32,000 nt of DNA, from NCBI GenBank assembly GCA_964640155.1, contig CAZXEQ010000001.1, positions 1 to 32,000 of the forward strand, given 5' to 3'. The notes under the pieces were generated by a model. The model was not told the DNA's origin. It saw only the letters and a list, made by a program, of their open reading frames with translations, and ran no database searches. The stretch comes from an uncultured bacterium. GTDB lineage: Bacteria > Auribacterota > JACPWU01. Below, one piece after another: positions 1-29,600 of the stretch; positions within the stretch are counted from its first letter, which is position 1, and the number at the start of each line of letters is the position of its first letter. The position numbers were made by a program, and so were the translations under genes.

Positions 1-138
1 ACTCTTGCAGTATCAGAAGGAACATCTGGTCTCACCGGTACATCTGGAGAAATTACTACATCCCCCATAGGAACATCAGGAGTAACTGCATCCACTCTTG
101 CAGTATCAGAAGGAACATCTGGTCTCACCGGTACATCT
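1..138 (-). repeat. 93-bp (31-codon) in-frame tandem repeat inside PD linker c
   Basis: Positions 1-45 and 94-138 are identical (actcttgcagtatcagaaggaacatctggtctcaccggtacatct), encoding PDVPVRPDVPSDTAR twice. The array may continue beyond the left edge. Confidence 0.85.
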
Positions 139-323
139 ACAGATGGCATTCCCCTATCATCTACAGGTAAAATATCCGGAATTTTAGGCGTGTCTAAAGG
201 AACAGGCACATCATCTGATGGCATTCCAGTCTCTGTTATATCGGGAAGAACTACAGCTTTGTCAGCAACTCCCGAGGAATCATCAGCACTTGCATCCGCA
301 TCCTGGTGATAATCACCATAAAA
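1..323 (-). repeat. Asp/Pro-rich low-complexity linker (PD linker c), running off the left edge
   Basis: The sequence is FYGDYHQDADASADDSSGVADKAVVLPDITETGMPSDDVPVPLDTPKIPDILPVDDRGMPSVDVPVRPDVPSDTARVDAVTPDVPMGDVVISPDVPVRPDVPSDTAR. Confidence 0.8.
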
Positions 324-6300: not shown

Positions 6301-9300
6301 TCTACTAGCCCACTTCCATCTGGGATGTGTCGTCCCTCTATGACTCTGATAAGTCTAAATGTATTGGCATTGATTAGGGCAGGTACTTCAGATGCTGGCC
6401 TTCCCATCGCTGCTGCAAGTCGATTGATTAATTCCATTCGGTCTACTACAGGCACTCCCCACATCGTTGCTCGGCCATTTGTTACTTCTACAGTCGCTTG
6501 ATAGGTCGCTCCTCCAACCACTAACTCTGCCTTTAATGTATATCCATTTAGATTTCCTCGTGTGTCCCTTAATCCCGAGCTCCATGTGCTGTCACTTAAA
6601 AATGCCGTCTTTCCTGCTGCGCTGAGTTCACTTGAGAAGCCTGCAAATGCTCCTCCACTGACTCCCGTGTATCTGAGTCTCCTTGTGTACATCACTGTTC
6701 CATGTGCTTCTCTATCTGTGACAACATTCTCTGCTACGGTTACAACTCCCATTGTTCCAAATGCACTCTCCGTTGTGACTCCATAAAAGTCTTCTGTTCC
6801 ATCTGCACTTGCTGTCACTCGTAATGGATTGCTTGCGTTAAAGTCTGTGATGGTTAATGCCTTGGGTCCACTCAATGCTACTTCTACTGTCCCACTTCCA
6901 TCTGTGATGTGTCTTCCCTCTATAACTCTAATAAGTCTAAATGTATTGGCATTGATTAATGCAGGCACTTCAGCTGGTGTTCTTCCCATCGCGGCTGCGA
7001 GTCGGTTTATTAATTCCATTCGGTCTACTACCGGTACTCCCCACATCGTTGCTCTTCCATTTGTTACTTCTACTGTCGCTTGATACGTCGCTGTCCCTAT
7101 CACTAATTCTGCCTTTAACGTATATCCATTCAGATTTCCACGTGTGTCTCTTAACCCCGATGTCCATGTGCTGTCTGCTAAAAACGCTGTCTTTCCTGCT
7201 GCGTTGAGTTCACTTGAAAAGCCTGCAAATGCTCCTCCCATGACTCCCGTGTATCTTAATCTTCGGGTGTACATCACAGGTCCATGTGCCTCTCGATCTG
7301 TGACTACATTCTCTGCGACTGTTACAACTCCCGTTGTCCCAAATGCACTCTCGGTCGTGACTCCATAAAAGTCTTCTGTTCCATCTGCACTTGCTGTCAC
7401 TCGTAATGGATTGCTTGCATTAAAATCTGTGATGGTTAGTCTCTTCGCTCCTATTAAGGCCACTCTCACTTCTGTTCCACTAGTTAATTGGCTTCCAGCT
7501 ACTTTCCTCTGAAGCCTAAACACTCCAATTCGTATCATCCCTTCTAATGTTGTTCGATCTACTCCCGTTGCCAAAGCCAATCTTTGCAGTAACATATTTC
7601 TATCAACTGGCGCAAAACCTACAGCATTCATTCCTACTCTTCTTGGAATATCTATCTGAGCTTGTCTTGTACGTAATACTCCCATAGCATCGCGATATTC
7701 TAATTCAGCCTGTAACGTATATCCTCTTAAGTTTCCCGTTAAATCATTAATTCCTGAGACCCAAGTTGAGTCTGCCAAAAATGCTGTTTTACCTGCATCA
7801 TCCAACTCTTCACTATAACCAAATGACAATCCACCCGTAACTCCTGTCGCAACAAGCCGTCTTACGTATTGTTCACCACTACTCATCACGCCTTCAGCTC
7901 TCGCATCAATGACTGAATCTGTGACTGTCACTGCACTTGAAGAAAACACACCTGAGGTTCTTACTCCATAATAATCTATTTCTCCACTAGCGCTTTCCAT
8001 ACCTCGAAGTGTATTGCTTGCATAAAAATCTGAAATAGTTAGACGTTTAGGTCCGCTCATTCCAACATCTACAATATCGCTGCCATCTGTAATATGACGT
8101 CCTTCAATCACTCTCATGAGTCTGAAAGGATTATTTCTAATTAAACCCTCTACTTCTGAAACAGATCTTCCCATTCTTGCAGCAAGTTGAGTAATTAATT
8201 CCATCCGATTCACGACGGGCACTCCCCACATCGTCCCTCTCATATTAGAAACTTCAACATCTGCTTGATACTTCATACCGCCAATCTCTAATTCAGCTCT
8301 CAATGTATATCCACTGAGATTCCCTCGTCTATCCTTTAACCCTGATGTCCACTGTGCATCTGATAAAAATGCTGCCTTACCTTCAGCATTTAATTCAGTT
8401 AAAAATGCAGCATATCTATTTCTTGATACTCCTGAATATCGTACTTGCCTTGTATACATTTCTGTTCCATGAGGATCTCGATCTGTAACAATATTTTCCT
8501 CTACTGTTACCAAAGGTCGTCCAGTTGAAACATCCACTGTTCCAAAAGCATTTTCTGACTCTACACCATAAAAATCATCTACACCGTCCGCACTTGCATT
8601 CACTCGGATAGTTGTATCCACCATTAATTTTGACATATAGACCACACCATGAGCGCTGGACCCTCCAGCTGATTCCGCAACAGCACCAATATTTCTCACA
8701 TCTTCCCACCGTACAGGTGATTGTCCTGAAGGAACAGGGAAAACCCGTCTTAAATCTTCTTCACGAATTTCAATTCTATTTGAACTATTGGGAGTTGTGT
8801 TAGCTTGCAGTTCTATTCTGAATTTTCCAATTCTTCCATCTCTTAATGTAATCTGAAAATAAATTATCTGAGCTGTATCTGTTTTAACATACCGACGAAG
8901 AACACCTCCTGAAGCGGTGACGGCCCTTCTAATATTTTGAGCAGTCATTTCTGCAGTTCCCTCAAGAGATTGTCCTACCGCAGCGTATTCTCCACCATTC
9001 AAAGTCCAATCCCACTGAATACTTGCGCCATCTGCTACACGTATCGGTTCTGCGTTTGCATCAATATTGGTAACGACAACATCAGAGCTGGATGTCCGCG
9101 TTGGATTTCCAAGGCCAGCAATCTGGGTTGGTGCAGGACCCGTTCCATTATCTTGTTGAACAGTTAAAGAAACAACATTTGCAGTTTGTGTAGATTTAAT
9201 TCCTACTACTCTCATTCGTCCTCTTCTAGCGCGAAAAGAAGGATGATTACTGGGTTCTTCTAAAGTCAATTCAGAAGCAGCTGTTACAAGGTCTCGTCCA

Positions 9301-12300
9301 CGCTCATCCACTAACTGATTTCTTGGAAGACGCACTCGGTACCACGAGTTAGGACGTAACCCTCGCATTAGAAAATGTTTTGTGGTTGTTTGACCAGAAG
9401 CATCAAAACGCGCATTAAAATTGACTCTCATATTGACAGGTTCGCTGCTTCCAGGGGTCATAACTTCTCCACGTGCATTGAGAACTTCATTAATGCCTTC
9501 CAAAAACACCCAGAACACAACGTCATTACCTGTTACCATAAGATCATTTGAAATATTGCGTCCCGCAGCGTTTACTGCCGTAAAAGGGAAAGCCATAACC
9601 GCATATTCTGGCATGTTTTGAGTATTACCATTACGATCTAAATCCCATGTATACCCAATAGCTCTCTCACCAGATCTACGTCCTTCTACAGGAGTTGGTG
9701 ATACCACACTCAATACAAGGCCACTTCCTCCTGTCGCAGAAGTTGCTGAAAGCGCATTCGTCACAAAAGTTGGCATGCCTTCTGCGGTTTGAGTAACTTC
9801 AGCATCTACGGCTAATAAAGAAGGCGGAACACCACATGCCTCCATCAAGATTGCTCCCGCAAGACCTATAGGGGCTGCAACAGATTTAAGCAACATACCT
9901 AAAGCAAAAATGACTGAAATAAATCGACTTCCAAGAAGACCGGAATAATGACGAATCGTTGCAACTCTTTCTCTTAACCTGCGTTCATAGTTAATTGAGG
10001 CACTTGGTCTTCTTGGTTCAAGACCTTTATCTTGTAGTCTTTGAATTAAACGGAAAAAAGTTTGTTCTGTAACTTCCCCTCGCTGACCTCTCACACGAAC
10101 GTCAGATTTATCTTTAAAAGAAACAATAACTTCATAATCATTTCTGTTCGCAGCAGGAATAAATTGAATTTGGTCAATCGTTCGATAAAACTCAGGATAT
10201 TCGTTCCTTAATACTTGATGAAGTCGAGACAACCTGGCTTCTTCATCCAAAAATAGTGGTGGAGCTTGTCCTACAAAAACACTCAACTCTTGTAATAATT
10301 GAGTCCGTGCGGCGTCTCCTAAGTTTAAACCTTTGTCTTCTAGAGCCTCTAAGATAACTCCCCAAAATTGACTGGTAATTAAACCCCCTTCTCTATCCAC
10401 TCCAAGATTTTTAAACACTGTTGTTCCATCAGAAAGACGAATTTGGACGACCCCAACTTCATTCGAACCTGCTCTTACACCATCAGGAAATAAACCATAG
10501 TTTGTAATACGCAAATAAAAAGCAGGATCATTTGCTCGAATGCTGTCTATCACTCTCTGAAGCGCAACAATAACATCATCCCCTTTTTGACCTTGAGATA
10601 AACCAGCTCCAGCCACAGAAGATGAAGATCTAGAGAAAAAATAATCATCAGCAACTACCCTTTCTAAATTAGATCTTTGACGATGTGCAGCTTCATTTTC
10701 CTGCCTTCTATGTTCTCTAGCAAAGTGAATGAACCCTGCGAATAAACCAATGCTCGCCAAAACTATTACAATAATGGCTGCCCATCGACTTGTTCCAGAA
10801 GGCGGACGTATGGATTGAGCAATTAAAGATTTTAACTCTCTTACTCTTTGAGCGAGTTTTCTTTCATAAAGTTCTTCATTTTTATTTATATCTTCCGGTG
10901 TTTTTGTGGGGCCAAAACGAACGTGTTTTACAAGTTCATCTAACTGACGATCCATACCATCTTGTGTCATGCGTCTAGCTTCAACTTCTATTCTTAATCT
11001 TGCTTTTTCTGCTTCATAATCTTTCACCGACCCCACTGCAATAGCACCTAATTTCAATTGCTTACCTTCGCTATTGGGTGCCGTAGCCTGAATCAAAGCC
11101 CATTCAAACTTGACCACAGGAACATAAATCGTTTTTCCATTTCTGAAATAGGTTTGTACCTTAACGCTGACAATAGGATCAATCTTGCTTTTGGCTTGAG
11201 CAGCCTTTTGAGCTAACTCTTCTTGAACCTCTTTCGTTTTTCCTTCTCTACGCAGCTTAAGAAGTTTTTGAACATCGTCCTCACTTAAACCTACGTATCT
11301 AGCGATGGCAGGAATATCTTGAAAAAAAGTATTCGTATTCATCCAAGGCACAGTTGCAGAGTTCACATCTGATGGAAGTTGTGGATCTTCTACTCCTACT
11401 AATGTCCCATTTTGTGCTAAAAGAGATCCACCTTTTTGACCTTCAGGTCGAGAAGCAACCTCCATGACAGACTCAACACCATGCTCTTTATTCATCTCCA
11501 CAAAAATCCCTAACATCACCCAAAAATCTTCGTCAATATTCGAAACAGCATTATCCACATTCATAACATAAACAAATTTTCTATCCTGTTCAAGAAGGTC
11601 TAGCAAAGTACCACTACGAACAAGATCTGCAATCCAGTCAAAATGATTCTGAACATAAGTAATAGGTTTGCCTTCCGGATCTCTTGCTGTTTCAGCAGGA
11701 TGGGCATTTGCATAAGCTAAAATTTGTTCATATTGATCAATAGTGTCTTGAAGAGTTCGACGCCCATCATCGCTCAAAGATTCTCCACCTTCAAGTCGAG
11801 CACGTGCCTTTTTTGCATCTTTCGCATAAGAACTATTTTCAATATCTGCAACAGTTGGAACACCTGCTTGCGCACCTCCTTGAGTGAATAAGCGAAGTTC
11901 TTCTGGACTCCATCCAAAATTTCCATGACGAGCTAAATAATCTCTCGCAGGTTCATCGGTATTCGGTCCAGTCATTAAAAGAGGAAGAAGACCACTGTCT
12001 CTCTCTCCCATCACTTGCATCAAAAACAGTTCAAGAAAGGTATAGGCTCTTCCATCAATGACAATAGCTGGCACTTGAGCTTTTGCAATAATTTTAGAAA
12101 GGTCTTCACGGTCTGTTTCAGGAAGAGCATCAAAAAGGGGTTTAAAACGCGGATCCGCACGCATGGCCTGTACTTTCATACGTGAAGCATCTCCACCAAC
12201 CATCATGGCTGCTACAGCCTCTTTGGAATGAGCACGACCCAGAGCTTCATAGCGTGCACGATCTTCTGAAGATAATGTGCGAATATCTTTAATAAGAGAA

Positions 12301-14605: not shown

Positions 14606-17600
14606 TTAAGCTGCAGTTCCTATCCACGCTTCTCTTCTTATCTCACCATCCATATCGCTTCGATCTGAAACAAGATTTAAGCTACTCTTCCTATATATAC
14701 CCAACCGTAAGACATCCCCCTCTTTTACAACTTTAACCACGCTACCATCTTCAAGTCGAGCAATATCCACTCCCTTTTCCAAATCAGCAATCGACCTTGT
14801 AAGAATCATTTCCAGAGCAACTTCAAAATACTGAACAGAAATATTTCCGGCTCCAACAAAATCAATATAGAAACAATGAGATATTTGACGAAGATCTTTA
14901 ACTATTTCAGCCACATCTGAACTTAATTTCAAAGTTTTACCTGCAACCTGAATCTTCCCATTCTTTTGAAGCAATATAATGCGAGATATTGTCTTTCTCA
15001 CAAGTTGATGAAGCGGTTTTGATATCTTAGCATCTTGATTCATTCCTTCCAAAATAGTCAATCCATCTTGCGTACGCCCAGATTTCAAATTTTTAATAGC
15101 TTCGAAATAGGGATCGATTGATACTAACCCGCTTGTCTGTAATTCTCTTGCCGGATGAACTTCATCAAAATAAGAAATGAGTTCAACCAAAGGCATGTTT
15201 CCCATTAATCCATCAACTGTTTCATCCACTCCAAAAATGATTTGTGCTAAATCTTCAGAGCTAAAAGATTTCCCTCTCATAAAAGAAGCCATTTGAAGCA
15301 GTCCGCCTAAAACACCTTGTTCCATTGCAAGTGTTGCTTCCTCATTGTGGTGATATTCTTCTGAGCGAGCTCTTTTTCGTCTTTTTTCCTCTGCCGCTCT
15401 TACTTCAACAATCTTTCTCACTTTTTCACGTAAATCATTTAATGTCATCTCATCTGATTGAAGAGATTTAATGGTTTTTTGAATCAAATCCGCAAGAGTG
15501 CGATTATCTTCCAATCCCAATTCATCTCTATTTAAAAAATGTGCAATGCTTGTTTGCAAAAGATCCGCAATTTCATTTTCAGTAATTTCCTGTAAAAACT
15601 CTGGGACAGCTTTAACAATGCTGCTCACTAATTTTTGAGTTTGATTCTGTCTCTGTGCTTGAGCCAAACGTAATCCCAAGATATAGCGTCTAAATCTCTT
15701 AAAATTAGCCAATCTGACTCTTTCTTTAGCTACACCTCTAACATTCGAAGGGTAAAGTTCACCAACATATTCAGAGATTGTTGGTCTTCCCTTTGATATT
15801 TCTTCAGAATCAGTAGCTAGAAATTGAATCCAAACAAAATAAGTTCCCGAAGCAAAACGAGGATGTTTGCCAGTGATGTGATCAGAAAAATAAGCGTCAA
15901 TCTTAGTCTTCAAAGCTGCATTTATAAGAACCACTTCTTTCTGATATTCCACATCTCTTTTAATTTGAGTCACTTCTTCTTCCTTCTTATCATCGAAAGA
16001 GTCTGCTTTATTTGTATGGCCCAATTCATGAAAAAGTCGTTCACCCAAAAGATGAATCACCACATCATGATAAGTACTATCATCCTCAAGTAGTTGACGA
16101 ACAAAAGCTTCCTGTAAATAAATGACTGTTTGACCTTTTTCAACAGTACGTAAAGAATTCACAGGAATATTATTTGAAACTTTAATCACCACATTTTGAT
16201 TTTCAGCTCGTGAAATGACGTCATTCCAATAACTTTCTAAAGAAGTCCCCTTCACTCTTTCCTGAACATTCTTTAAAGCTTGTTCAATGAGTAAAGCATA
16301 ATGTGCTCGTCCTCTATTATCGGGAACAGCATTCCATGCAGTTTTTGAACGATTCAAAGTAACTCTATCAAAAACAACTTCTTCTATTCTTTGAGGCCAT
16401 TCGAAATTAGTTTCAGAAAAAGTTAGAAAAAGAGCTGAATACTCTGCCTCATAAATGGATATTATTTCTCCTAGTGGTTTAAGATCATCATTATAAGTGT
16501 CTTTCCCCTTTTCACCGAGACGATTAAGCTCTGCTTCAAGTTTGTCGTACTCAGCACGAAGTGCTGGTAAAATAGCCTCAACACTTTCAGACTCGCTAAG
16601 CTGTTCCACCCGAGCCCTTAAAACTTCAATGTCTCCACTTATTGCATCTAAACTTCTTATAGGAGTTTCTGCAGCAGAAGACATGTCTGCAGGCGTAGCA
16701 GCTTCTGAAGCTGGTTCATCGTCGTCTTCCAGATCAGCTGAAGTTAAGTCTGCTGGTTCAGCTGCTTCAGGTTCTGGAGGAGGAGAATCTCTTCTTTCCG
16801 GTGCGGCGGGTTCTTCAGGCAGTGGTTTATCTGTTATGTTGATAGCAGCATCCCTGACAACAGGTGTAGCAGGAGCTGGTCTTTCTGCAGAGAGAGCTTG
16901 AGGCGTTGGCACTGGTTCAGGGGATTCAGGTTCAGGGCTCAACTCTTTAAGACGTTTTCTAAAAAGTTCTCGACGATTTTGAATCTCTTCTAAACCTTCT
17001 CGAATGGCTCGTTGTAAATCTTGAACTCTCGTTTGACCACTCCAATCAGAAAAAATATCTCTTAAAGCATCCCTTGCTCCTGTAAAAAGCTCTTCAGCTT
17101 TAGCCAATGATCCAAAAGACTCTGTAATGTCATCCTCTGATGCATCTTCAGGCTTTACAAGATATAAAAGAATTTTTTGAGCAGCATCAACCGGTTCAAC
17201 AACATTCTTTTTAAACAAAGCTTCTTGTGCATCTTCTGGGGTTGGAGAAGATCTTGGAGTTGCTTCTGTTTGAGTTTCTGTTTTTGCCCCACCCAAATCC
17301 GCTCCTGTGACAGTTTCTACTGAAGCTCCAACTCCTGATATTGAAACATCTCCTAAAGGAGCTTTAGGTTCCGCGGGTGCCTCAGGTTCTGAAGCAGGTT
17401 TAACTTTTGCAAGACGAGCCTCCCACCTTGATCGAAGGTCCTTGATAACACCAAATCTTGCTTGAATAATAGCCCTTGCACTTTCAGCCCAAGCCCTATC
17501 AACCAATTTCATTTGTTCACCTTCATGCTGAACATCAGCAAAAACAGCTAAAACATCTTTACCTTCTGGAATTGCCTCTAACGCTGTTTCTAAATGAGCT

Positions 17601-20600
17601 TGTGCTACATCCAATCGACTAAGAGCTCTTCCAACCTTCTCTTCATCAGCACTTTTAATAGGGTTATCCGATCTATCAAAAATTCTCCTCTCTGCATTAT
17701 TAATAAGAGTAACCACCCGTTCTTTTAACTTTTCTTCAGCTGTTTTCTCTGCAGGTTTTTCAGCTTTAACGCCTGATTTTGCTTCTGAAGATACACCTCC
17801 ACCCCCAGGAATAGAAGGAGCAACTGGAGGAACAACACCCGGCTGCTTTACAGGAGGAGTAGCTTCAGGAATATCAATACCTAAGTCTTTTAAAAACTGA
17901 ATATCTTTAGCCACAAAACCAAGATCTTTTAAAATTTCTTGCCTTCTTTCATTTTCTAAATTTTCCCAGAATTCATCACTTCTCTTAAAACAAAAATTCC
18001 AGACATGATAAGCAACATAAAGTACTCCCATATACTTAAGAGGTGTAAGAATTGAAGCTCCCGCATAGACTAAAGCTCCTTTTATTCCGAAAGAAGCAGC
18101 CCAACCATACAGGAACATCACTAAAGAAACTATCCATGCACCCTCTTTAACAATTTTCCAATTTGCCCATAAATTTTCTTTATTTTCTCCTAGGATATTT
18201 CTCTCTAAGTACTCTTTGAAAAACATTCTTCTAGGCGATTTTTTATCTTTATCAAAAACTTTATAATACGAAGCTGCTGGATCTCCCAATGATGAGAAAA
18301 ATCTTTTTGCTATTTTGAATCGAAGTTTCCATCGATCCGATAGAGAAAACGTGGTTGCCAAAGGATCTTTCCAAAATCGTGTATGTGTGTCTCGATACAT
18401 TACTCTTTCCGCCAGATCTTCTAATTTTTGGCGTTGTTCTTTACTCTTTTTATATCGTGTTCCATTCCACCACCAAGCAAACTTATATTTCAACTCAGCA
18501 TAATGACGCCAAGTAAAAAATTCAGGGATCAGCTGTTTACGTTGAGTTTCTAATTGCATCCAAGTCCATTCAACCAATCTGTCCTGAAACCAAGGAGAAA
18601 AACCATACATTTTACAGAGGGATCTAACCCATGCACGCAAATGTTCTTCTTCAAATGTTATTCCCTCAAATTGACCCAACAATTTTTTAACATCTTCTTC
18701 TTTAAGTCGAGGAATCTTAGCCCCCGGTGTCGCTTTCTCCCATTTATCTCTTAATGTATTTAAACGCTCAGTCAATTGCGTCAAATGAGAAGGCTGAATT
18801 TCTTCAAAAGCAAGGACTCGTAAAACTTCTTTGATTTCCTGACGAGCTAAAAGATACGGTTTGTCCAAATAAAGACGCAAAGTATCACGCTCATCCAAAT
18901 CAAATTGTTTGGCAACTTTTTTAACGCGTGTCTTAAAACCCTCTATCGTCTTTATTTGCTCAGATACACTCCCGTTAGTCGAGGACGCGTTTACTTTAAC
19001 TTCTTCATCTTCTTCAGAAAGAGTTGCTTCTTTATAATTAAAAATATTTTCGGCTAACCTTTCTTCGGGGAGAATTAAAGGCTTATGAAACTCTCTAGAA
19101 CGACCCTGATAGGTCGTCCACCAAACTGCCAAAGGACCAATCAGCCAGGAAAGAATGACCGGATAAGCCATTGCAAAAAGACTGAAGGGAATAATACCTG
19201 CAACAGTTAATCCAATAATGATCAAAGCCGGAATCACTGTTTTCATAAACATTTTGAAAATATTTATCTTACTCACCACAATTTCTCCAAAGAAATTATT
19301 AACCTCAGGGCCTGGCGTCCAGACCAACACCCCTTTATTAAAATAAAGTTCAGCAACTTGAATAATCATGATCGATAAAACCCAAAGGTTTAGTAAGAGG
19401 GTTAGCGTACTCCAAAAAACCAATCCAATACCTGATTTAATAATTTGTAAAATATCTCGACCCAATTTTGTGAAACTTAAGAATAAAATAATGGGAATAA
19501 TATAGGGAACAGATGCGATTAAAAAAGCCCATGGAGAAACAAGCAAAAATGTTGAACCAGACCCGAAGACAAGACCATTTAAAATAATTAATAAATGAGC
19601 TATCTTAGGACCTAGAATGGGTAGTAATTTTACACTCGCACCGGCAAAAGCAATAGCAGATTTCATGACAATTCCCCATTTACCAATAAATAAACTACCC
19701 ACTGCCAAACCTGCCCCGATAGACCCTAAAAACGTCACTGTATTGCGTATTCCTTTCCACCAAAACTCTTTCCTCGTTCTTGAGGGTTCTTTCCAAATGC
19801 GAATTGCAATAGGACGAATCACATAAGTCACACCTAAAAGCATTAAAAATACCACTGTATAAAGCCAATTGGATAAAACAGCTCTTGAAAGTTCTCGCGT
19901 CCCGGGGGTAACAGCACTGATCGCAGATGCCCCTGTCCAAAGAAGGAAAAGAGGATCATTAACAATTCCCTGAAGGTTAAACCAAGTCACCAAATGTCCA
20001 ATCCTCGGCTCATGCTCTTCTTTAATAATTGCCTCGGCTGCCTTTTTGACACCCCCTGGTTTCCACACCCCTTCCGCAAGATTTTTAGAAACCTTCCAAA
20101 GTGGATTCACAATTTCTTGAATCAGAAAATCTCCAAATCTCCATCTCACAATTCTAGCTAACATGAATAAGAAACTTGCGGGAGCATCTTCTGCATATCT
20201 TCCCAAATATTGCCAACTGTTAATAATTAAAGTCGCCTTACCTCCAACGCCTTCTGTGTGATCATGACTTAACTGATTCGCACGCGTAAAAGTTTTGATG
20301 ATAATATTGTTGATCGCTCTATGAATGCTCCAACTCCCTTTTCCAAAAGAGGTAAATAAAGGTTTCCCATTTCTCTTAAAAATGCGAGCAACAATTTCAA
20401 CGGTGCTAAACAAACGTTCCCCTGCTGTTTGCTGTCCTGTTGCAAAGGTGTTTTCCCCTTTGTTTAAGTTAACAATGGTAGGAACAAAAAGAGTAAAATT
20501 GTTTCCTAATTCTTGCTCTGCAGCCATGACAGAAGAAAGATAAACATGTGTGCCAGGCAAATAAGTATCTCCCCCGTCCATTTGATGAGCAAACTGAACA

Positions 20601-23600
20601 CATCGATCTGGTTCTACTTGTTCATCTAATAAATCTACAATTTTATTTCCATCCGAATCATAGAGATAGAAAAGTCCACTTCCCGGCTGACCTTCTTTCC
20701 CCATCAGAATGTCTTGTGAACGATGTAAAATCTCAAAGAGATCTCGCTTCAGTTTTGAGTCTTTAACGCCATTCAAATCTAATTCTGAAGCCTTGTTTAA
20801 ACCCTTAAATTTTTCTGTCAATTCACCTTTTACATTAATGTATTTTGCATCTATCAAAGCTTGCCATAAAGAATCAAGATTCATCCCTTTTAAATCCAAA
20901 TAAGCTAAATCGGTTTTCTTAACTCTTTTAGCATCCCTTGTAATAAGGCGAGTACTCTCATCCTCTTTACTTTTTAATGCTCCAAAATCATTTTTGGCTG
21001 CTACTCTGATCCACTTTTGAACCCATTGCCCATCTTTTTGAATGACTGTTCTATAGGCTAAACCTCCGACCTCAACATTGTCAAAAATATCTCCCCTTGC
21101 TTGTGCTTCTGCTAACTCTGTTTGAGTAAAAACATGAAAACCATCTTTTTCATTTACCAAAAAACCATGTTGTACTGTATCACCTACTTTTTTCTTCACG
21201 ACGACTCGGCCTGGAAACTCCTTATCTTCCCATGCAGCCATTTCTTCAGGCTTAATATTGATAAAATAATGCGTCTCATCTCCTGTTTTTCCTCGATGCA
21301 AATGATAAGAGGCCCCGTAATCTCCTTGTTGACCAATTCGTTGAATTCTTATTTTGGCAAACATGCTAAGAAAGTGATCTCGTTGATCGTTAGGAGAGAG
21401 ACTAGAAAAATCTTTTATTTCTAAAACAGCGTCTAGGACTTCTTCAAGCTCTTGCGCTGAAATATGATTATATAAATGCTTACTCCAAATATTTCTTAGA
21501 GCCTCTTGAATATTACTGACTTCTTTTATTTCATCTGCAAAAGCTTTTTCTGTTAATAACTTTCCCCATTCTGCTTTAAAATGGGTAGCTGCTTTCTGTA
21601 AAGCATCTTGCTCTACTTTAATCATCTGAATCAAAGGATCTTGCCGTCTAAGATCAGCTCCATCAAATTCACCTCGAACATAGGTATTACCATCTGACAC
21701 TAGTTTCCCTTGAGATGCCCATTGCAAAATTCTAAAAATTTCATCTTTATGCTCTTCAAATTCACGAGTATTAAATTTAGAATCGTTGAATTTTATATCA
21801 GCAGGTTTTTTTAAGACCTTAAAGCTCTTTTGAACGATCCCATTTTCTAAATAACCACTTTTTGTTAAATCAATCAAAAGCTCTTTAATATCCTGATCGT
21901 CCAATCCCATTGATTCAAAATTATCTTTAGTAAGAACAATTTCTTCCACCAAGAAAAATCCCTTGCCACTGCTGACATTCCATTTCCCAGCTGTTTTTTT
22001 GTCTTCTTTAAAGATTAATGTCCCTTTTTCATCAATGAGAACACACTTCCCCTCTCCAGCATCTTTGACAGGTTTAGAAATTTTTTTCAAATCATCTCTC
22101 GTTGCAACTCTAAAAGGTCCGATTTTTCTTCTATTGTTTTTATTCGTTTCATCTTCCTTATCAAGGTAAACAACAAAAAATCCAGGGGGATTTTTGAGAT
22201 TTCCAGCATCATCCTTTTCTATTTCTAAAATAAATTCACGCGGGGCAAGTGTATCAATGATAATTTTTCCACCTTCTTTCCACTCTTCACATTCATATTT
22301 TCCTTTAATAATAGGAACTTCCATGTATTTAACAACATCACCTGAAGGTGATATAAAATCCCCTTCGGCCAAATGTCTTCCATTTTCTGTTTCTTTGTAT
22401 TCATTGACACTGACAACCTTATAACTAAGCTTTCCTTCTTTTTCGTGAGCTTGAAAAGTCTGATCTAAAATCCGAACTTTTTCTTTTACACGTGTTACGT
22501 TTCGTCTTTCTCCTTCACCTTCAATTTTATATAAATCGTAAATAAATCCTAAACTATGCGCACCTTTTCTAGAGAAGATAGCACCCTTCTTACCATTTGT
22601 TAGAAATGCATGATCCTCTAAAAATCTCGTATTCCCTTCGAAATCAATGTAAAGTTTATAGTCATTGCCATTCTCATCCTTAAAGGTTAACCGATCGATC
22701 GTATCTTCTTGTCCCATGACAAAAGACGCATCTTTATCAAGATCCTTTAAAACCTTTAAAGGTTCCCCTGTATTAAAATCGATGAGTTTTCCATTTTTAA
22801 ATTCAAAATCTAAAGTTGAAGCAATTTTATCTCCTCGGGTTACCCGACCATCTTGTAAGTTAACTGGATAAAGCTCCCCTTCTAAAATTTCATAACTGGG
22901 CGTCTTTTCTCCATCTTTATAGAGATACCAATGATTTTCGAAATGAACATCATCATTGATCACTTTGCCATTTACTTTTAAGACTCTTCTTTCTCTCAAA
23001 CCATATCGATTGAGAGGATCAAATTTTAAAAGCTCACATTTGCGACCATGAACATCAAAGGTAACGCCTTCAAGTTTCTCTCTCTTGTCCAAAACATCGG
23101 CGGTATAACAAGTAGGATGTTCATGCTTAAGTTGCATCAATAGGAAATCATCATACATAGATCCCCATTTTTTACCAAAACGAACCTTATCTTCAGGAAC
23201 CTCTGCATTTTTTCGATTCCGATGTTCCCAAATCACACGATCATCACCAACTTTATCCATAAATTCTTCGATCAAAGCCAATTCAGATCCAACTACATTA
23301 TTGTCAGGAGATTGATTGAAGATGACCAATTTTTGATGATCGCGAGGGTCTGGTATTTCAAGATTTTCTCCATCCTGCAAAGCCAGGATTCTTGTTCTTA
23401 ACCTACGATTAATCGAAAAAAGAGATACATCTTCTTTTTTTGTTCCATCAGGGCAAATCATGTCAAATTTCTTTTGATCTCCATCCACGCGACAAACGAT
23501 TTGCACCTTTGAAACATTGTTCCAAAAATCCTCAAATAAAGAGTGAACTGCTTCATTAGATACTTTCACACTGTTGGGCAAATAAGGTAAATACACCATG

Positions 23601-26600
23601 GAATTATACTTCATCGGCACACGGCGATGCTTTTCCAACCAGGGATGAAGAGGAGGACCATCTCGTTTCATGACAATATCTAGCCAGACAAGGGAAACAT
23701 ACGCAATGGACCAAAAAAGAATGGTAGCAGCTCCTGTCATCAAAGCTGTTAGTAAAGGACTTGAAGCAATCAAAAAAGACACCATCACACCATAAAGAAT
23801 GGCAAAGAAAAACATGAATGAGCGATGCACCAAGAAATACAAATCTATTCTTAACTCACTCCACAGAAAATCCTTTTCTCCTTCTTTTTTAATTTCCGCC
23901 TGAAAACTTTTTAAGATTTTATAAACAGTTTCTTTGCCTTGAGCTGTATAACCCGTAAGGTCTAAATCAGCATGAGACTCCACGCTTTGTTGAAATTTTT
24001 TACTTAAATGACCTTTTTTATCTAAGTAACCTGCTTTTTTTAAATCTTCAAAAATATCATTGCCTGATTTTTCCAATCCTGAAAATTTGTCTGGGGTAAG
24101 TTTTGCACTCGATTCTCGGATGCTTCTTTTCACAAAAAAGAAACCATACTTAATCACATCAAAAATAAACCTCTGATATCCTCCAGCAAAATAAAGCACC
24201 ATCGCCATAATAATGGCAAAAGTAACCAAATGAGCCAACGCAACCACACCTAATCCTAGAGTCGCACCCATACTTACCCCTAAAATCTTGGTCAACAAAA
24301 AGAGAACCAGAGGAGGAATCGCAGGAGGAAATACTATTCTCGCAAACAGATCCCGTCGAGCAATAGCTCGAGTAATAACCCAATGCAAGGGAGCCACAAT
24401 AAAAGAAGGAAGAAAAAGATTCAATACTCGAGCAACAGGACCAATCGTATAGGCCTTTCCCTTAAGGCGCTCTTTATCATAGTGAGCAAAACCCCAACGC
24501 ACGCCTACATAAATTAGAATGACAAAAGCAAAAATGCCTATAAGAGGTAAAATCCCTGATCCAATCCCACTCAACAATGTTTTAACTGCATAGAGAACCA
24601 TTTGCAAACCACTTCCAGAAACAGAAGGAGGAAGTATATCAAAGCGAACACTTAAAAATTTAAAAACGCTGACAAAGGTTCCTGGAGCAACCAATAAATC
24701 AAAAAGTTGCAGTCCTCCATAAACCAATAATAACTGTATGGCGACTTTAAAAAGACCGAATACAAACCGTGCAAGTAATTTAACTTTAGAATTTTTCGCA
24801 AAGCTTGACAACCCACTTAAGGCGCCTGTAATTAAAGAAGATAAACCAAGACCCAACCATATTTTCTTTATTGTCGCCTTACTAAAAACATACGCCTTCT
24901 CAAATCTTTCTGATGCCTGCCGCTCATGCATTTTTCTAAAATAGGTTTCTATCGCGTCATTCACCCGTTGAATCAAAAGCCGTCTTTCCATACGAGCCAA
25001 AACATCAAAACCTAAGGATTCCAAACGATTGTCAGAGGCTCTATCATATTGACCATGATGATCAATATCAGCTAAAAGGTCTTGTTCCCATCCTTTAAAT
25101 ACAAAATACATGAGAACTTGATCTGTTAATTCTTCGTTTGTCACATTTTTAAATTCTCTACTAATTCTATCAAAAGCCTCGCGCCCCCCTCCTAATCCAT
25201 TTTTAATAAACAATATTTGATCTATGGCACGATGAAGAGAAGCAAGAGTCACATTTTGACGAACCATATGTCGAGTAATGATATCAATCAACCGATCCAT
25301 TTGTTCTGACGTAATTCCTAAATTTAAACCTGAACGTTCTAATTCCATCTCGACACCCAAACGAACATTCAGACGAGCTGCTTCTCGAGCCATAAAATTA
25401 ACCCAATGATCGATTTTAGAAGCATTCTGTCCCAAATCTAAAAATGAAAATTGTGGATCTGTTGTAATCTTTCCACGAAAAGCTTCTTTGATTTGAGTTA
25501 ATTTTATCCCAGGCCGAAAAGCCTGCCCTTGAATCAAATCTGAAATGAGACGTACTTGATATTCTGTAAGTCTAGTCATGCCTGACAATCTTTCGACTTG
25601 AGCATCACTTTGGACGCTAGATTCTAAACTTCTCTGACGGGCTCGAGTTTGAATGACTTGTGAAGCAAGAAATTGAGCAAGTTCAGTTTCAACATTGGGA
25701 ACTGCTTGTCCATTTCTAGCAAGTCCCAATCTCTGAACTTGGATTCTCATCTGAACGACTAGATTTTCTCTATGACTTGGATTTGCACGTTCTCTTAGAA
25801 ATCTAATAAAAACTTCTTTTTGGCCAGAAGCAAAATTTAAATTTAATTTTTCTAATTCTACATCTACAGCTAATTCAATGAGACGTGGATCACGCAAAGC
25901 TTGATACATCATAAAATCAACCCAATGGTTGATTTTTGCAGAATCGTCTCCTAAATGCATGAACGCAAATGTATTTGGTCTAATACCCTGAGTAAACGCT
26001 TGCCTCATTTGCGCAGGGGTTGTTGCATTCATTGCAGCCTGCTCAACTTGGGCATGAATAAGATCTGTAATTGTTCTAACCTGATCACGGGTAGGTCGTT
26101 CTGCTACCACTTCTTGAGTGATGAGTTCAGATCTTACGGCATCTTCTATTTCTTCCTGTAAATGAGTCCCATCTGACCTTATTTCAATAACACGCAATGC
26201 CAAAGCGCGAGCTAAAGTCTCTTTTCTTTCATCACTCATAGATCCTTGAGTTACTGTTAGAGAAGAACCGAATGATTGTAAAATCTCCCTTTCTTCATTT
26301 CGTTCTTCATCGAACGAAGCTGAAGTTCTAACAGCATTAGCAAGAGCTTCAATTTGTTGAGTTGCAGTTAAAATAGAGTTCCCAGCAAGTGTAATCCCTC
26401 TAAAAGTAGATTCACTCAGCTTGTTACGAATGATATCTGAAATTGTTCCTAATGTTTGAACAATATCTGCATGTTGAGGAGGAGTATAAGGTTCTGCAAT
26501 CATGCCTAAATCAAGCAACCGATCTGCCATAAAAAGATTACGTCTCATATCTACAACAATTCCAAGACGTGTTTCTTCTTGCACCAACAAATCCACCAGA

Positions 26601-29600
26601 CGCATCAAATCTTGAGTGTCTCCAAAAGATAATCCTTCTCGCAAAACAGATCCCGCAATGACATCTGCAGAAGAAAATTCCATTTGTCTTCCCTGATCTG
26701 TCGGCCAATGTCGATCTCTCCACGTGTGATACACCCACATTCTATAAGCGTAGGTACGCATCACATCTACTAAAGGCATTCCTTCATCTGTCATTTTCCC
26801 GACAAAGAAACTTACATCTCCAAATTCCGACCAAAGATATCCTTCTAAGCTTAACTGGCGCACATCAGGGTTATAAATTTGTTCCATACTCAATTCTATT
26901 CCAAAAGCTTCCTGAATTTTTATTTTAAGTCTTTCTCTTAGAGCCGTTCGTGCTGCATTTTCACCTTCGCCAGGCAAAAGACGTTCTACATCAGGATTAA
27001 GAATAGGGCGACCAATAAGCTCGCTCCCAAATGTTACTCCCCTTCCGTACCTAGGAACATATCTTAAAGCTTGGAGCATACGCGTAATTTCATCCAAATG
27101 ATTCGCCATCTGACGATCTGCATTTGACCAATCTTCGGGATGATCCCATCTTATTTGCCCCACCACCGATTCAACACGTTGAATAAGTGTTTGAGCTTGT
27201 GCAGTTCCCAGCACTTGAGAAATGAAATAAAGCGAAGCTACTCTTGAACGATTCTGAAAGAAAGTGTGAATCTCAGATGCACGATCTCCCCGATCAATCA
27301 TGTGCTGAATTTCATCAAGATCTCCTTGATCCAGCATAAAGCCTGTGACAGGATCTTTCCCAAGCCCAGGCCAAAGATGATTTAAAGCAGGGACACGGTC
27401 TTGACGGGGCAAAGAGAAAATCCGAACAAGCTGCGTATCCAGTGTATCTCTGTTCGCATTTTCTCCCATGATACTTGTTCTCATCTCCCGAGCTCTTTCC
27501 CTTTGCTGCCGATCTAAGCGTAATCTATATTCTCTTTTCACTTGAGCTCGATGTTCAAACCAATCTTGCCCATGTCTTCTTGCATACACATCATCCAAAA
27601 AAAGTCGTGTATTTCTAACAACTGAAGACCCCCTAGAAACAGAAGGATCTAAAACATCTCTCAAAGAAATATCTGAATGTCCTTGTTGAGTCACACGTTC
27701 TTGATAGATAGGATCTGCAAAAATCAAAGCTACAAAACTTGACACATCTGTATCTCTTTTAACGACCAGTTTCATTTGATAAAGAATCTCTGCTTCAATT
27801 TCCCAAGCATTCAATCCTTGCTGCCGAAGACCTGTTGTTAATGAATTTCTTAAGTCTTTTTCCATTCTAACAAGTCGGACAATTTCAGCAGGCGTAGGGA
27901 AATGGCCATCAGTGATTTTCACTTGAATAAAGTATCGCCGAAGTTGAACTGAAGTAATGGGAACCCCTTCTATCTGGTTTTGAATTAAATTTCCTTCTGA
28001 ATCTATATAACGTCTCCATTCAGGGCTTTTCACCCAAACTTCACGAAGCTCAGAGAAAAAATAAGCCCTCATAATACCAACAGCATTCCCGGGAGTTCTT
28101 TCTAATTTGTTATAGGCATACATCATTTCGTTAAAATAAGTCAGCGTATAGCCCATATGAGTTTGAAGATTAGTTTGAACGTCTCGTATCCAATCAAAAA
28201 AGCGATCTACATCAGTCTCATCCCAATTTCTATCTTCCACCGCTTTTTCAAATTCAGAAAGCTCTGTAGGAGTGAGGGAAGCCCATTGAGCATTTTCAAG
28301 ACCTTGAATCTCACGGTTAAGTCTTGCGATTGAATCAGCATTCCCCTGAGCAGCCTGTATTTGTTGTCTCAAATCTGAAATTCTGTGATTTCGCCAATCA
28401 TGAAAAGCTTGAATGCTCTCTCTTTGTTTCATTAAAATATAGGCACGCATTCTAAAATTTTCACCCATTTGATAGATAGAATCACTGCCTTGTTCTACCC
28501 ACATACGAGCTACTCCCATCTCACCCTCTGGAGGATCTTCAGAAACCCATAAATGGCGTTCTCGTCTGGGAGAGAGTCTGCCCGAAGATAAATCTGTATC
28601 TTGTATATTTGGATCTATATTCCCACAAGCCCAGTGATAGGCTCGATAACTGGCTCTAATATAAGTATCGCTCTTAAAATGTTCATATATTTCCCACGGT
28701 TCTCTACGATTATCCGTAAAAGTTCTTGCAAAGTATTGAATTTCATCATTGGTTAATTGAACATTATGTGCGGCTAACTCTCGAGAAACTAAAAGCTGCC
28801 TAATAATCACCACCATTGCATAACCTTCTGGCCCTCGACTGCCCATCAGATCAATAATGGCTCGAGCCGCACTTTCATTTCCAACAATCACATTTACAGC
28901 TCTTGCATCTCTTCTTAAAATGGCTTCGAGTAATATTCGAGTTCTTACGTGAGGACCCTCACTTGGATGTACACCCCGAGCAACGTCTGCCCTAGCACGG
29001 ACTACATCTTCTGAATGAGCTGCATCAATCAAGTTTTCAATCCCTTGAAAATCAACTCTATTCATTAAAGTTACCAGCTTTTCAAGGACAGTTGTTGCTG
29101 TCACTTGATTTCCCATACCATCTTGATTAACACGTCTTAAAGTTTGTCCATCCAAAATAGTACCTAGCACTTGATTGAGATGATCTCTATCAGATACAGC
29201 TAATGCATTAGTAGCATCTTGTATTGTTTGACTCATTCCCCTTAAAAGTCTATCTCTTGACTCATGAGAAGAACGCATGACTCTGGAAATATTTGTTAAA
29301 AATCGCTTCATATAAGAATCTCCTTGCGGAGTATCTTCTATAGAACAACCATCCTTATACATTTGTTCCAAAAAGGCTCGCGTAGCCCCTTCTGTTGCCA
29401 TACTCTCCCAAAAGAGCTGTTCCCTAGGATCTTCTGCTTCCGACTGAAGTCTTCGAACAATATCTAAATAAATATTCCAGTGCCTAAAACTTTGAAGTAA
29501 TCCTCTTTCTCCTCTAACACCTGATCCCTCTTTCCAGAAATCTTCTATTCTTGAGAGAAGAGTAAATCGTATATCTTTGATCTCTCTGGCTGTAAGAGTT

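Follow-up and report, generated by a model that had tools for sequence, protein, structure and literature searches.

A giant membrane protein of a Candidatus Auribacterota bacterium with a probable, highly derived OpgH/MdoH-like core

ORF B, read from the minus strand of the window (the whole 32,000-nucleotide stretch analysed here), probably encodes a giant, selectively constrained inner-membrane protein of a Candidatus Auribacterota bacterium. Profile alignments and motif register suggest that its core of ~1,600 residues (aa ~2716–4312; window ~19064–23854) is likely a highly derived and very distant relative of OpgH/MdoH. OpgH/MdoH is a membrane-embedded family-2 glycosyltransferase (GT) that, working on the cytoplasmic side of the inner membrane, makes periplasmic β-glucan from UDP-glucose and releases the product across that membrane.

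The stop-free frame covers 14609–31999 (5,797 codons), is followed by a stop codon at 14606–14608 and has its first TTG at 31948, giving a protein of at least 5,780 aa. As ORF B (14606–31999) is open at the window edge, its true N-terminus may lie outside the window. Residues are numbered on the 5,797-codon frame, which adds 17 to the numbering of the earlier note, and all features described below are on the minus strand. An orthologue with 81% amino acid identity is present on a 16.9-kb Candidatus Auribacterota MAG contig (JAYRIK010000164.1), and conservation was judged from this one sequence, which makes it shallow. dN/dS between the two is 0.03–0.26 across the transmembrane (TM) clusters (0.075 in cluster 3) and 0.17 in the Lys-rich region and insertion. 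Given 17.4 kb without a stop, the orthologue and the low dN/dS, ORF B is a real gene under purifying selection. It had no match in curated HMMs (Pfam, NCBIfam, PHROGs), in a PDB sequence search or in a k-mer-indexed homology search, and a search for full-length homology to any characterised family, which the earlier note had named as grounds for abandoning its description, found none.

Kyte–Doolittle hydropathy places ~20–21 hydrophobic helices in four clusters, in agreement with the positions and the 20–25 helices proposed from the letters of the sequence; this count is from hydropathy only. Cluster 1 (aa 2380–2607; 24179–24862) has ~8 helices, cluster 2 (aa 2716–2777; 23669–23854) two, cluster 3 (aa 4014–4297; 19109–19960) ~8–9, and cluster 4 (aa 4621–4671; 17987–18139) is a two-helix hairpin. 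Relatives of clusters 1 and 4 were not detected. The clusters are separated by large soluble regions of 108, 1,236 and 323 aa, as had been described, and the second of these is indeed Lys-rich (Lys content 9–11%; 1.9% for the first 2,379 aa). That N-terminal soluble region (aa 1–2379; 24863–31999) is Arg-rich and Lys-poor, has a higher GC content than the core and contains one internal duplication of ~130 aa (aa 1929–2065 and 2107–2238); neither family matches nor relatives were detected for it. The 323-aa region after cluster 3 (aa 4298–4620; 18140–19108) is Lys/Arg-rich, 92–95% conserved in the orthologue and without a family match. Beyond cluster 4, the three expected linker-plus-helical units are present as linkers rich in Pro, Glu and Ala with helical sequence after each (aa 4672–5180; 16460–17986), and evolve fast, with indels and a dN/dS of 0.59. 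A C-terminal tail (aa 5401–5797; 14609–15799), 47–67% identical in the orthologue and with no family matches, closes the protein.

Relatives of the core were found with HMMER, by searching 1.84 billion representatives exhaustively for matches to aa 3501–4700. Three uncharacterised proteins matched, P0001 (E 1.2e-13, spanning ORF B 3764–4302), P0002 (3.6e-6) and P0003 (3.9e-6). P0002 is collinear with ORF B 2858–4309, pairing 2858–3353 with its residues 691–1159 and 3536–4063 with 1194–1675. P0003 belongs to an Omnitrophota protein family of ~1,450 aa (1,416–1,456 aa; P0003 and P0006–P0012), which includes P9M06_01475, a hypothetical protein of Candidatus Saelkia tenebricola, and HDL09812.1.

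An alignment of ORF B with P0001, P0002 and P0003 matched a 10-sequence OpgH profile in hhalign with a score of 79, P 4.9e-9 and probability 96% in local mode, and with P 7.5e-14 and probability 98% in global mode; an 11-sequence alignment gave P 1.5e-4 (local) and 9.5e-9 (global). The de-inserted family including ORF B aligned over 518 columns, nearly all of the OpgH core (P 5.6e-7 local, 1.9e-11 global), and the N-terminal half of the GT domain, aligned separately, matched in collinear register (P 2e-4 and 6e-4). TM-rich sequence can raise profile scores, and the controls argue against this here: reversed and column-shuffled OpgH scored 12–22 (P 0.15–0.98) and BcsA 18.7 (P 0.27), versus 30–47 for individual OpgH sequences (10 of 10). 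ORF B alone reached a P of only 0.03, so that the link to OpgH is transitive, running through P0001, P0002 and P0003; taken by themselves, the eight Omnitrophota sequences that are closely related gave a P of only 0.04. Curated GT2, Glyco_trans_2_3 and MdoH models stayed below threshold for ORF B and its relatives, also with the insertion removed. P0002 without its insertion weakly matched two MdoH equivalog HMMs (E 0.003 and 0.007), the only glycosyltransferase models flagged by any curated library for a family member.

On this alignment, cluster 2 would be the counterpart of the TM pair preceding the OpgH GT domain, lying directly N-terminal to it and spanned by the de-inserted alignment. 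The predicted GT-A domain that follows would be split into an N-half (aa 2790–2985; 23045–23632), a Lys-rich insertion (aa 2986–3799; 20603–23044; ~815–855 aa), homologous to that in P0002, and a C-half (aa 3800–3965; 20105–20602), which would carry the catalytic-base HD and the RxxRW glucan-binding motif. Cluster 3 aligns to the C-terminal membrane domain of OpgH and would be its multi-helix equivalent. The earlier note had treated the ~1,240-aa Lys-rich region as one extramembrane domain between membrane domains stitched together. For clusters 2 and 3 this description does not hold: with the Lys-rich ends they would form one OpgH-type unit, so that the region between them is not a single extramembrane domain and would comprise both GT halves and the insertion. 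Flippase, O-antigen ligase and MMPL-like families, named in the note as ones to compare with the TM clusters, were not recovered, and the family that emerges is an OpgH-type synthase-translocase. The insertion lies between the KxGN..DDF and DxD motifs; E. coli OpgH has 15 aa between these two. There are three Lys-rich modules of ~65 aa, M1 (aa 2636–2700; 23900–24094) in the loop that joins cluster 1 to cluster 2, and M2 (21710–21919) and M3 (20705–20902) within the insertion (M1–M2 z=5.7, M1–M3 z=5.5; the observed score was reached by 0 of 1000 shuffles).

The motifs fall in register across both halves. In the N-half, 'VIFNQSPD' aligns to OpgH 'ILSDSYNPD' and 'KKWGSMYDDF' to 'KSGNIDDF'. In the C-half, 'QMDGGD' occupies the DxD site, with D346 kept as D3808; 'SHDHTE' supplies S3911-H3912-D3913 and E3916 (OpgH S447-H448-D449 and E452), followed by E3937 and P3940 (E474 and P477); and R3949-I-V-R3952-W3953, followed by G3956 in a G-D pair, matches the RxxRW motif (R486, R489, W490 and G493). 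The register continues through W4227 (W640) and P4280 (P686) to the 'LPEE' after cluster 3 (P4311-E4312, OpgH P719-E720), and every register-matched position is identical in the orthologue. Four canonical residues are lost in ORF B and its orthologue alike, D285→Q2896, D348→G3810, Q373→V3839 and R387→T3854. The ~1,450-aa Omnitrophota relatives retain D285 (8/8), D348 (9/10) and Q373 (10/10), so the losses are confined to the branch of ORF B and P0002. Since two canonical acidic residues are replaced, catalysis is in doubt: the core could be a synthase with weak activity or an altered specificity, or else a pseudo-glycosyltransferase still able to bind glycan or UDP-sugar. We infer that it binds or extrudes a glucan-like polymer, and if it is oriented as in OpgH, most of the soluble parts are probably cytoplasmic.

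The likeness to OpgH could in principle be an artefact of composition or alignment, in which case ORF B would be an orphan membrane scaffold of several domains that lacks an enzymatic core and whose four clusters are unrelated. The missing curated-HMM matches and the P of 0.03 for ORF B alone speak for this, as does a low-confidence structure prediction (AlphaFold2 of aa 3780–4340 from 10 sequences reached a pLDDT of only 44, and a Foldseek search of the PDB returned noise). We nevertheless consider it improbable: the shuffled, reversed and BcsA controls are at noise level with all OpgH sequences above them, and two independent collinear alignments, one of the N-half and one of the C-half with the TM domain, place every hallmark GT2/OpgH motif in register. 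A second, tentative reading accepts descent from OpgH and takes the core to be catalytically dead: it would keep only its membrane domain and surfaces that bind sugar, UDP or glucan, and would anchor the huge cytoplasmic extensions to the membrane or sense metabolites for them. Two of four canonical acidic positions are replaced, identically in the orthologue, together with Q373 and R387, and the branch-specific nature of these losses fits such a role. However, strong purifying selection has kept SHD..E, the catalytic-base motif, along with RxxRW and the first Asp of DxD, the Asp directly after the lost one ('DGGD') might substitute, and GT-A enzymes with variant metal-binding motifs exist. 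A parallel for a non-enzymatic function is provided by E. coli OpgH itself, which has a second role that does not depend on its enzymatic activity: it inhibits FtsZ in a manner coupled to the nutrient supply (PMC11389396).

The C-terminal part of ORF B contains a conserved block (aa 5181–5400; 15800–16459), a candidate minimal gluzincin-like domain, around HELGH (aa 5324–5328; 16016–16030), which is present as reported and is the sole HExxH. An active metallopeptidase of this type, cleaving the giant precursor or a partner on the cytoplasmic side as part of a self-processing polyprotein, is possible but doubtful. The HELGH motif with its flanks (VVIHLLGERLFHELGHTN) is unchanged in the orthologue and lies in the best-conserved block (77% identity; dN/dS 0.29 versus 0.41–0.59 in the flanks) of an otherwise fast-evolving C-terminus. 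Conserved Glu residues follow 11–27 residues C-terminal of the motif, and a low-confidence AlphaFold2 model orders two strands, the HExxH helix and a long helix. For the giant genes of Omnitrophota, peptidase domains that might cleave giant proteins have been suggested (10.1101/2023.11.21.568195). Against this, ~0.2 HExxH motifs are expected by chance in a protein of 5,797 residues with this composition, making the motif by itself weak evidence; conservation is from a single orthologue and the model has a pLDDT of 35. As the earlier note had found, the motif context could not be assigned: Pfam (E≤10), NCBIfam, PHROGs, PDB sequence and profile searches and tblastn against plasmids and phages recovered no peptidase family and no relatives.

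Among known systems, the giant genes of Omnitrophota ('archaeovorins', dockerin-type; West-Roberts et al. 2023) resemble ORF B, in the passages available, in being very long ORFs of a related PVC-group candidate phylum, mostly unannotatable, with numerous TM helices and carbohydrate-related domains (10.1101/2023.11.21.568195). They reach 30–85 kaa, versus at least 5.8 kaa for ORF B, and those passages do not mention an OpgH-like core (10.1101/2023.11.21.568195); ORF B, in turn, lacks SecA-DEAD, C39/S8 peptidase, dockerin or other Pfam domains. In the ~1,450-aa Omnitrophota proteins, P0001 and P0002, as in ORF B, a large insertion divides the OpgH-like GT domain at one and the same site (in P0002 it is homologous to that of ORF B), and the C-terminal membrane domain is homologous as well. 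They are shorter (1,416–1,867 aa versus at least 5,780 aa), 18–24% identical to ORF B, and lack its clusters 1 and 4, N-terminal region and HELGH region. The split architecture with smaller insertions (~545–665 aa) defines an uncharacterised clade, so far found in Omnitrophota, of which ORF B is the most elaborated member. ORF B would have acquired at least 2,380 N-terminal residues and the extra 8-helix cluster at the front, and at the back the 323-aa domain with its TM hairpin, followed by ~1,100 C-terminal residues that include the conserved HExxH block.

A giant ORF adjoins the gene in the relatives too; theirs is upstream, has a signal peptide and is not related to ORF A, the giant neighbour of ORF B. 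ORF A contains a UDPGP (UTP-glucose-1-phosphate uridylyltransferase family) fragment (E 5e-12), and mdoH adjoins galU on a Burkholderia plasmid; the two were counted as context for the OpgH reading. The UDPGP fragment is preceded by a signal peptide, so it may be extracellular and irrelevant as a supplier of UDP-sugar.

BcsA-type processive GT2 synthase-translocases (cellulose synthase), in which a cytoplasmic GT-A domain (D, DxD, catalytic Asp, QxxRW) is fused to a polymer-conducting TM domain, share the general logic of the OpgH-like core. A relationship between OpgH itself and BcsA is detectable (P 7e-11), whereas the ORF B family showed no direct score; as a further difference, a PilZ or c-di-GMP module was not detected. 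From OpgH, ORF B differs in falling below all curated HMM thresholds, in an insertion of ~855 aa where OpgH has 15 residues, in the replacements at D285, D348, Q373 and R387, and in embedding the core in a protein ~7 times longer, which has 10 additional TM helices and extends beyond the core by at least 2,380 aa at the N-terminus and by 1,500 aa at the C-terminus; an opgG/opgD-like gene was not found in the window. Both share the OpgH positions D346, S-H-D449, E452, E474, P477, R486, R489, W490, G493, W640 and P686 and the same order of a TM pair, a cytoplasmic GT-A domain, a multi-helix membrane domain and a cytoplasmic 'PEE' segment.

The window is occupied by two giant minus-strand open reading frames, ORF A and ORF B. 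ORF B runs free of stop codons from 14609 to 31999 (5,797 codons; stop at 14606-14608) and reaches the window edge without closing, which makes its 5,780 aa, counted from the first TTG, a minimum length. Residues are numbered here in the 5,797-codon frame, 17 above the numbering of the earlier note. That note had described about 20-25 hydrophobic helices in four clusters; Kyte-Doolittle scans recovered all four where it had placed them, with ~20-21 helices counted by hydropathy: cluster 1 (aa 2380-2607, ~8 helices), cluster 2 (aa 2716-2777, 2), cluster 3 (aa 4014-4297, ~8-9) and cluster 4 (aa 4621-4671, 2), separated by 108, 1,236 and 323 aa. As described, the long spacer is rich in Lys (9-11%, compared with 1.9% over the N-terminal 2,379 aa), cluster 4 is followed by the expected three Pro/Glu/Ala-rich linkers with helical sequence behind each, and HELGH is present at 16016-16030 as the sole HExxH of the protein.

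The composition of ORF B changes sharply along its length. The N-terminal 2,379 aa (window 24863-31999) contain 1.9% K and 10.7% R at a GC content of about 0.40-0.44, and the core (aa 2608-4620, window 18140-24100) reaches 16% K at a GC content of 0.34-0.38. This break suggests a fusion of parts with unlike histories. Just upstream of cluster 1, a helical unit of ~130 aa is duplicated (aa 1929-2065 and 2107-2238, window 25300-26215; 35% identity, E 1e-14). Three Lys-rich modules of ~65 aa were also found, M1 in the loop between clusters 1 and 2, and M2 and M3 within the Lys-rich stretch between clusters 2 and 3 (M1-M2 z=5.7, M1-M3 z=5.5; observed score reached by 0/1000 shuffles).

A scan of genome collections identified JAYRIK010000164.1, a contig from a Candidatus Auribacterota MAG (PVC group), which holds an orthologue of ORF B aa 1968-5797 together with the start of ORF A. 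ORF B is a real gene. Identity between the two exceeds 90% from aa 2060 to 4700 and falls to 20-77% over the last 1,100 aa, with the local maximum (77%) at the HELGH block (aa 5181-5400). The TM clusters have dN/dS values of 0.03-0.26 and the Lys-rich region one of 0.17; for the linkers and the HELGH block the ratio is 0.59 and 0.29, respectively. Synonymous divergence rises from 0.2-0.27 (aa 1968-4685) to 0.55-0.8 past cluster 4, where aa 4686-5797 (window ~14609-17950) were compared with positions 8950-11444 of the orthologous contig, with indels in the linkers. The jump resembles a boundary of recombination, and the C-terminal module beyond it would have been swapped or be evolving faster.

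Within the HELGH block, VVIHLLGERLFHELGHTN is identical between ORF B and the orthologue. The motif has a chance expectation of about 0.2 per ORF B, and conserved Glu residues lie 11-27 residues downstream of it in the one orthologue compared. Zincin metallopeptidases place HExxH in a helix and add a third zinc ligand. No family match was recovered for the block, and a single-sequence AlphaFold2 model of aa 5151-5797 (pLDDT 35) has the order strand-strand-helix(HExxH)-helix. The block could be a minimal gluzincin, its conservation being seen in one orthologue.

Searches of whole ORF B against Pfam, NCBIfam and PHROGs gave no useful match. PDB sequence searches with ORF B, a family profile, E. 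coli OpgH and a HELGH profile returned nothing, with no OpgH relative found by sequence among solved structures. Blastn against phages, scans of viral contigs and a first metagenome scan were blank; a second metagenome scan yielded no B-like giant, only two further Omnitrophota-type genes of ~1,450-1,520 aa. A k-mer-indexed search of 5.8 billion proteins found no match for the last 4,990 aa of ORF B. Relatives surfaced only when 1.84 billion representatives were searched exhaustively by HMMER with ORF B aa 3501-4700; this search returned three proteins: P0001 (776 aa, E 1.2e-13, covering ORF B 3764-4302), P0002 (1,867 aa, E 3.6e-6, collinear with aa 2858 to 4309) and P0003 (1,448 aa, E 3.9e-6), which clusters with a Candidatus Omnitrophica protein. 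Seven full-length relatives of P0003 measure 1,416-1,456 aa; one comes from Ca. Saelkia tenebricola, and none of the seven has a Pfam domain. A word-indexed search with a 4-sequence alignment containing P0001-P0003 found no match although those proteins sit in its collection; evidently, the word index missed existing relatives of ORF B.

Motifs seen by eye in these relatives gave rise to the idea that the core resembles the glucan synthase OpgH (MdoH), which was then put to the test. We built an OpgH profile from 10 sequences (E. coli OpgH and nine diverse plasmid-borne mdoH genes) and aligned it by hhalign with ORF B combined with P0001, P0002 and P0003, obtaining a local score of 79 (P 4.9e-9, probability 96%) and a global P of 7.5e-14 (probability 98%). 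An 11-sequence family alignment gave P 1.5e-4 (local) and 9.5e-9 (global), and reversed or column-shuffled OpgH control alignments scored 12-22 (P 0.15-0.98). Each of the ten OpgH sequences singly scored 30-47 against the ORF B family. A BcsA-like rather than OpgH-like core was considered and dropped, as E. coli BcsA scored at noise level (18.7, P 0.27). The region directly behind cluster 2 matched the N-terminal half of the OpgH glycosyltransferase (GT) domain independently and in collinear register (P 2e-4 and 6e-4). When the stretch that splits the GT domain (the insertion) was removed, the family including ORF B aligned with OpgH over 518 columns, nearly the whole core (P 5.6e-7 local, 1.9e-11 global). 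For the combined family, homology to OpgH was thus detectable by hhalign across both the GT domain and the C-terminal membrane domain. ORF B by itself reached only P 0.03, and eight close Omnitrophota sequences by themselves only P 0.04, so the link depends on how diverse the sequences of that family are. Intact or de-inserted, ORF B gave no hit with the curated MdoH equivalog (NCBIfam) or Pfam GT2 models; the best curated-HMM result of any relative was that of de-inserted P0002 with two MdoH models (E 0.003-0.007, 14-16 bits, against equivalog cut-offs of 328-864 bits). An AlphaFold2 model of aa 3780-4340 from 10 sequences had a pLDDT of 44, and its Foldseek comparison with the PDB gave noise (top matches dynein and GPCRs, E>0.6).

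The alignment suggests the following anatomy. Cluster 2 would form a TM pair ahead of the GT domain, whose N-terminal half (aa 2790-2985) carries 'VIFNQSPD' and 'KKWGSMYDDF', corresponding to OpgH 'ILSDSYNPD' and 'KSGNIDDF'. The insertion (aa 2986-3799) then splits the domain: F2952 and D3808 are about 855 aa apart, compared with 15 in E. coli OpgH, and the same site holds about 545 aa in the P0003 family and about 665 in P0002. An assignment of the insertion to choline/glucan-binding-like beta-hairpin repeats was rejected, as the motif count does not exceed that of shuffles (2 observed, 0.36 expected, shuffle maximum 4). The C-terminal half (aa 3800-3965) contains 'QMDGGD' (DxD), 'SHDHTE' (catalytic-base motif), 'E..P' and 'RIVRW..GD' (Q/RxxRW). 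Cluster 3 aligns with the OpgH C-terminal membrane domain (W640→W4227, P686→P4280) and is followed by 'LPEE', like OpgH 'IPEE'. The observation made in the earlier note stands; its interpretation, several membrane domains stitched together with big extramembrane domains, is supported in part, and clusters 2 and 3 would belong with the split GT domain to a single core.

Several residues invariant in OpgH are kept in ORF B (E. coli D346, S447-H448-D449, E452, E474, P477, R486, R489, W490 and G493) and others are lost (D285→Q2896, D348→G3810, Q373→V3839, R387→T3854), with the same states in the orthologue. The first nucleotide-binding Asp ('LSD', D285) is Q2896 in both; this position is D in 8/8 members of the Omnitrophota family and G in P0002. 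Of the DxD pair (D346, D348), ORF B retains the first Asp, replaces the second by Gly and has an Asp one position further on (D3808-G-G3810-D3811). The catalytic-base S-H-D..E (447-452) is present as S3911-H3912-D3913..E3916, invariant in 11/11 family sequences, and ORF B also has the (Q/R)xxRW + G(N/D) acceptor/glucan-binding motif (R3949-I-V-R3952-W3953-R-F-G3956-D3957, matching R486-D-R-R489-W490..G493-N494). The 1,450-aa Omnitrophota proteins retain D285, D346, D348, Q373 and D449 and look catalytically competent from their residues. Since they keep D285, D348 and Q373, degeneration is particular to the branch of ORF B and P0002. ORF B is not filed as OpgH because the curated models do not recognise it and two of the catalytic-residue checks fail. 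It probably works like, and descends from, an enzyme of the OpgH kind, with ~1,600 of about 5,800 residues forming a putative OpgH-like synthase-translocase.

ORF A (window 3-14492, minus strand) starts at an ATG at 14492, 113 nt downstream of ORF B and preceded by AAAGAGG, and exits the other window end after about 4,830 aa, a minimum length. Its N-terminus is a Sec-type signal peptide (MGQSTFKNKPLRKFISFLTAFTFLITSLPVQG), and aa 941-1084 (window 11268-11699) match a fragment of UDPGP (PF01704, E 5e-12). A nucleotide-sugar enzyme domain behind a signal peptide is an oddity; its position beside a putative UDP-sugar-using enzyme is suggestive, though the signal peptide precedes the fragment. BLAST found no similarity between ORF A and ORF B, and we dropped the idea that they are paralogues. 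ORF A carries tandem repeats of ~195 aa (aa 1953-2781, window 6177-8663; 40-83% identity) and a duplicated block of ~410 aa (aa 2938-3347 and 4324-4733, window 4479-5708 and 321-1550; 94-99% identity) with a third copy at aa ~3755-4082 (59-89% identity); every block copy closes with a lipobox-like hydrophobic segment (TKGAMALLIAATLTFVGC). The long near-identical repeats could reflect assembly collapse or expansion.

In OpgH, TM helices flank the GT domain, which is cytoplasmic, as is the C-terminus. Hydropathy of ORF B gives two helices before the corresponding domain and 8-9 after it, with strongly positive short loops. The substrate of OpgH is UDP-glucose, consumed on the cytoplasmic side, and its product, beta-1,2-glucan, is passed to the periplasm (PMC11842490; PMC11389396). 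By homology, both GT halves and the insertion of ORF B would be cytoplasmic, and cluster 3 would provide the polymer path. An even helix count is required of cluster 2 if M1, M2 and M3 share one side of the membrane, and its two helices agree with this. No signal peptide is visible in ORF B, whose frame is open at the window edge, and helix counts look even for clusters 1 and 2 together and for cluster 4; we infer from this that the last 1,100 aa, like the N-terminal region and the 323-aa domain, would be cytoplasmic too.

Two acidic ligands of the core are gone, while the catalytic base and RxxRW are kept under strong constraint. We regard a pseudo-enzyme serving as sensor or anchor as a possible but minority reading; an active enzyme with altered chemistry takes the rest within the scenario of OpgH homology. 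The genetic partners of OpgH are opgG and opgD; no OpgG- or OpgD-like gene was seen in the window, which holds ORF A and ORF B only. Taken as a whole, ORF B may be a 'mega-synthase' in one polypeptide: a glucan synthase-translocase derived from OpgH, whose catalytic domain is interrupted by an 855-aa insertion with a regulatory or binding role and which has been fused to about 3,900 new cytoplasmic and membrane residues that include a possible self-processing zincin. With the smaller Omnitrophota proteins it would then define a clade, overlooked until now, of envelope machines with a split GT2 domain in candidate phyla related to the PVC group, its core perhaps repurposed as a UDP-sugar/glycan sensor anchoring a giant cytoplasmic scaffold. 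This full picture is speculative, and we consider it rather unlikely in its entirety.

Giant genes from uncultured PVC-related bacteria largely resist annotation, and the core of ORF B now has a putative, testable identity. All members of the uncharacterised split GT2 clade of Omnitrophota and Auribacterota carry a 545-855-aa insertion at one catalytic-domain site, and the databases searched give them neither a Pfam match nor a name that indicates function. With an active core, these phyla would have a novel pathway for envelope glucans; an inactive core would be a clear example of how a processive glycosyltransferase became a scaffold or sensor. For method, the OpgH relationship was missed by curated HMMs and k-mer-indexed searches and seen only by exhaustive search followed by profile-profile comparison.

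In Omnitrophota-type contigs, the split OpgH-like gene encodes ~1,450-1,520 aa and always has an ORF of 2,050-2,534 aa directly upstream (L012 2409-14371; L013 2412-14350; L014 790-12728; L016 134-12214; L017 1-10499). The two genes overlap where gene calls exist (L012-L014) and constitute a conserved two-gene module. Both upstream ORFs translated (L012, L013) start with a signal peptide; a Pfam scan of that of L012 gave no significant match, and none is recorded for those of L013 and L014. The proposal that ORF B is a fusion of this module was dropped, the 2,534-aa upstream ORF resembling neither ORF A nor the N-terminal part of ORF B. Close to the Ca. Saelkia tenebricola homologue, L012 17064-23851 encodes a GT2 protein, a PF10091 'Glycoamylase'+CBM9 protein, a CBM11 protein, a ROK kinase and a sugar-binding SBP. 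PF10091 includes the GH144 beta-1,2-glucanases, and the stretch might be a local glucan-metabolism neighbourhood.

Published accounts describe archaeovorin-type Omnitrophota giants as having numerous TM regions and divergent SecA DEAD/preprotein-binding domains within tens of thousands of aa. ORF B resembles the giants of those accounts in its many TM helices, yet it lacks a SecA_DEAD or other Pfam match and, at no fewer than 5,780 aa, is far shorter, so that it departs from the archaeovorin type as set out there. Its closest characterised family is OpgH/MdoH, and its closest uncharacterised relatives are the split-GT2 proteins of Omnitrophota.
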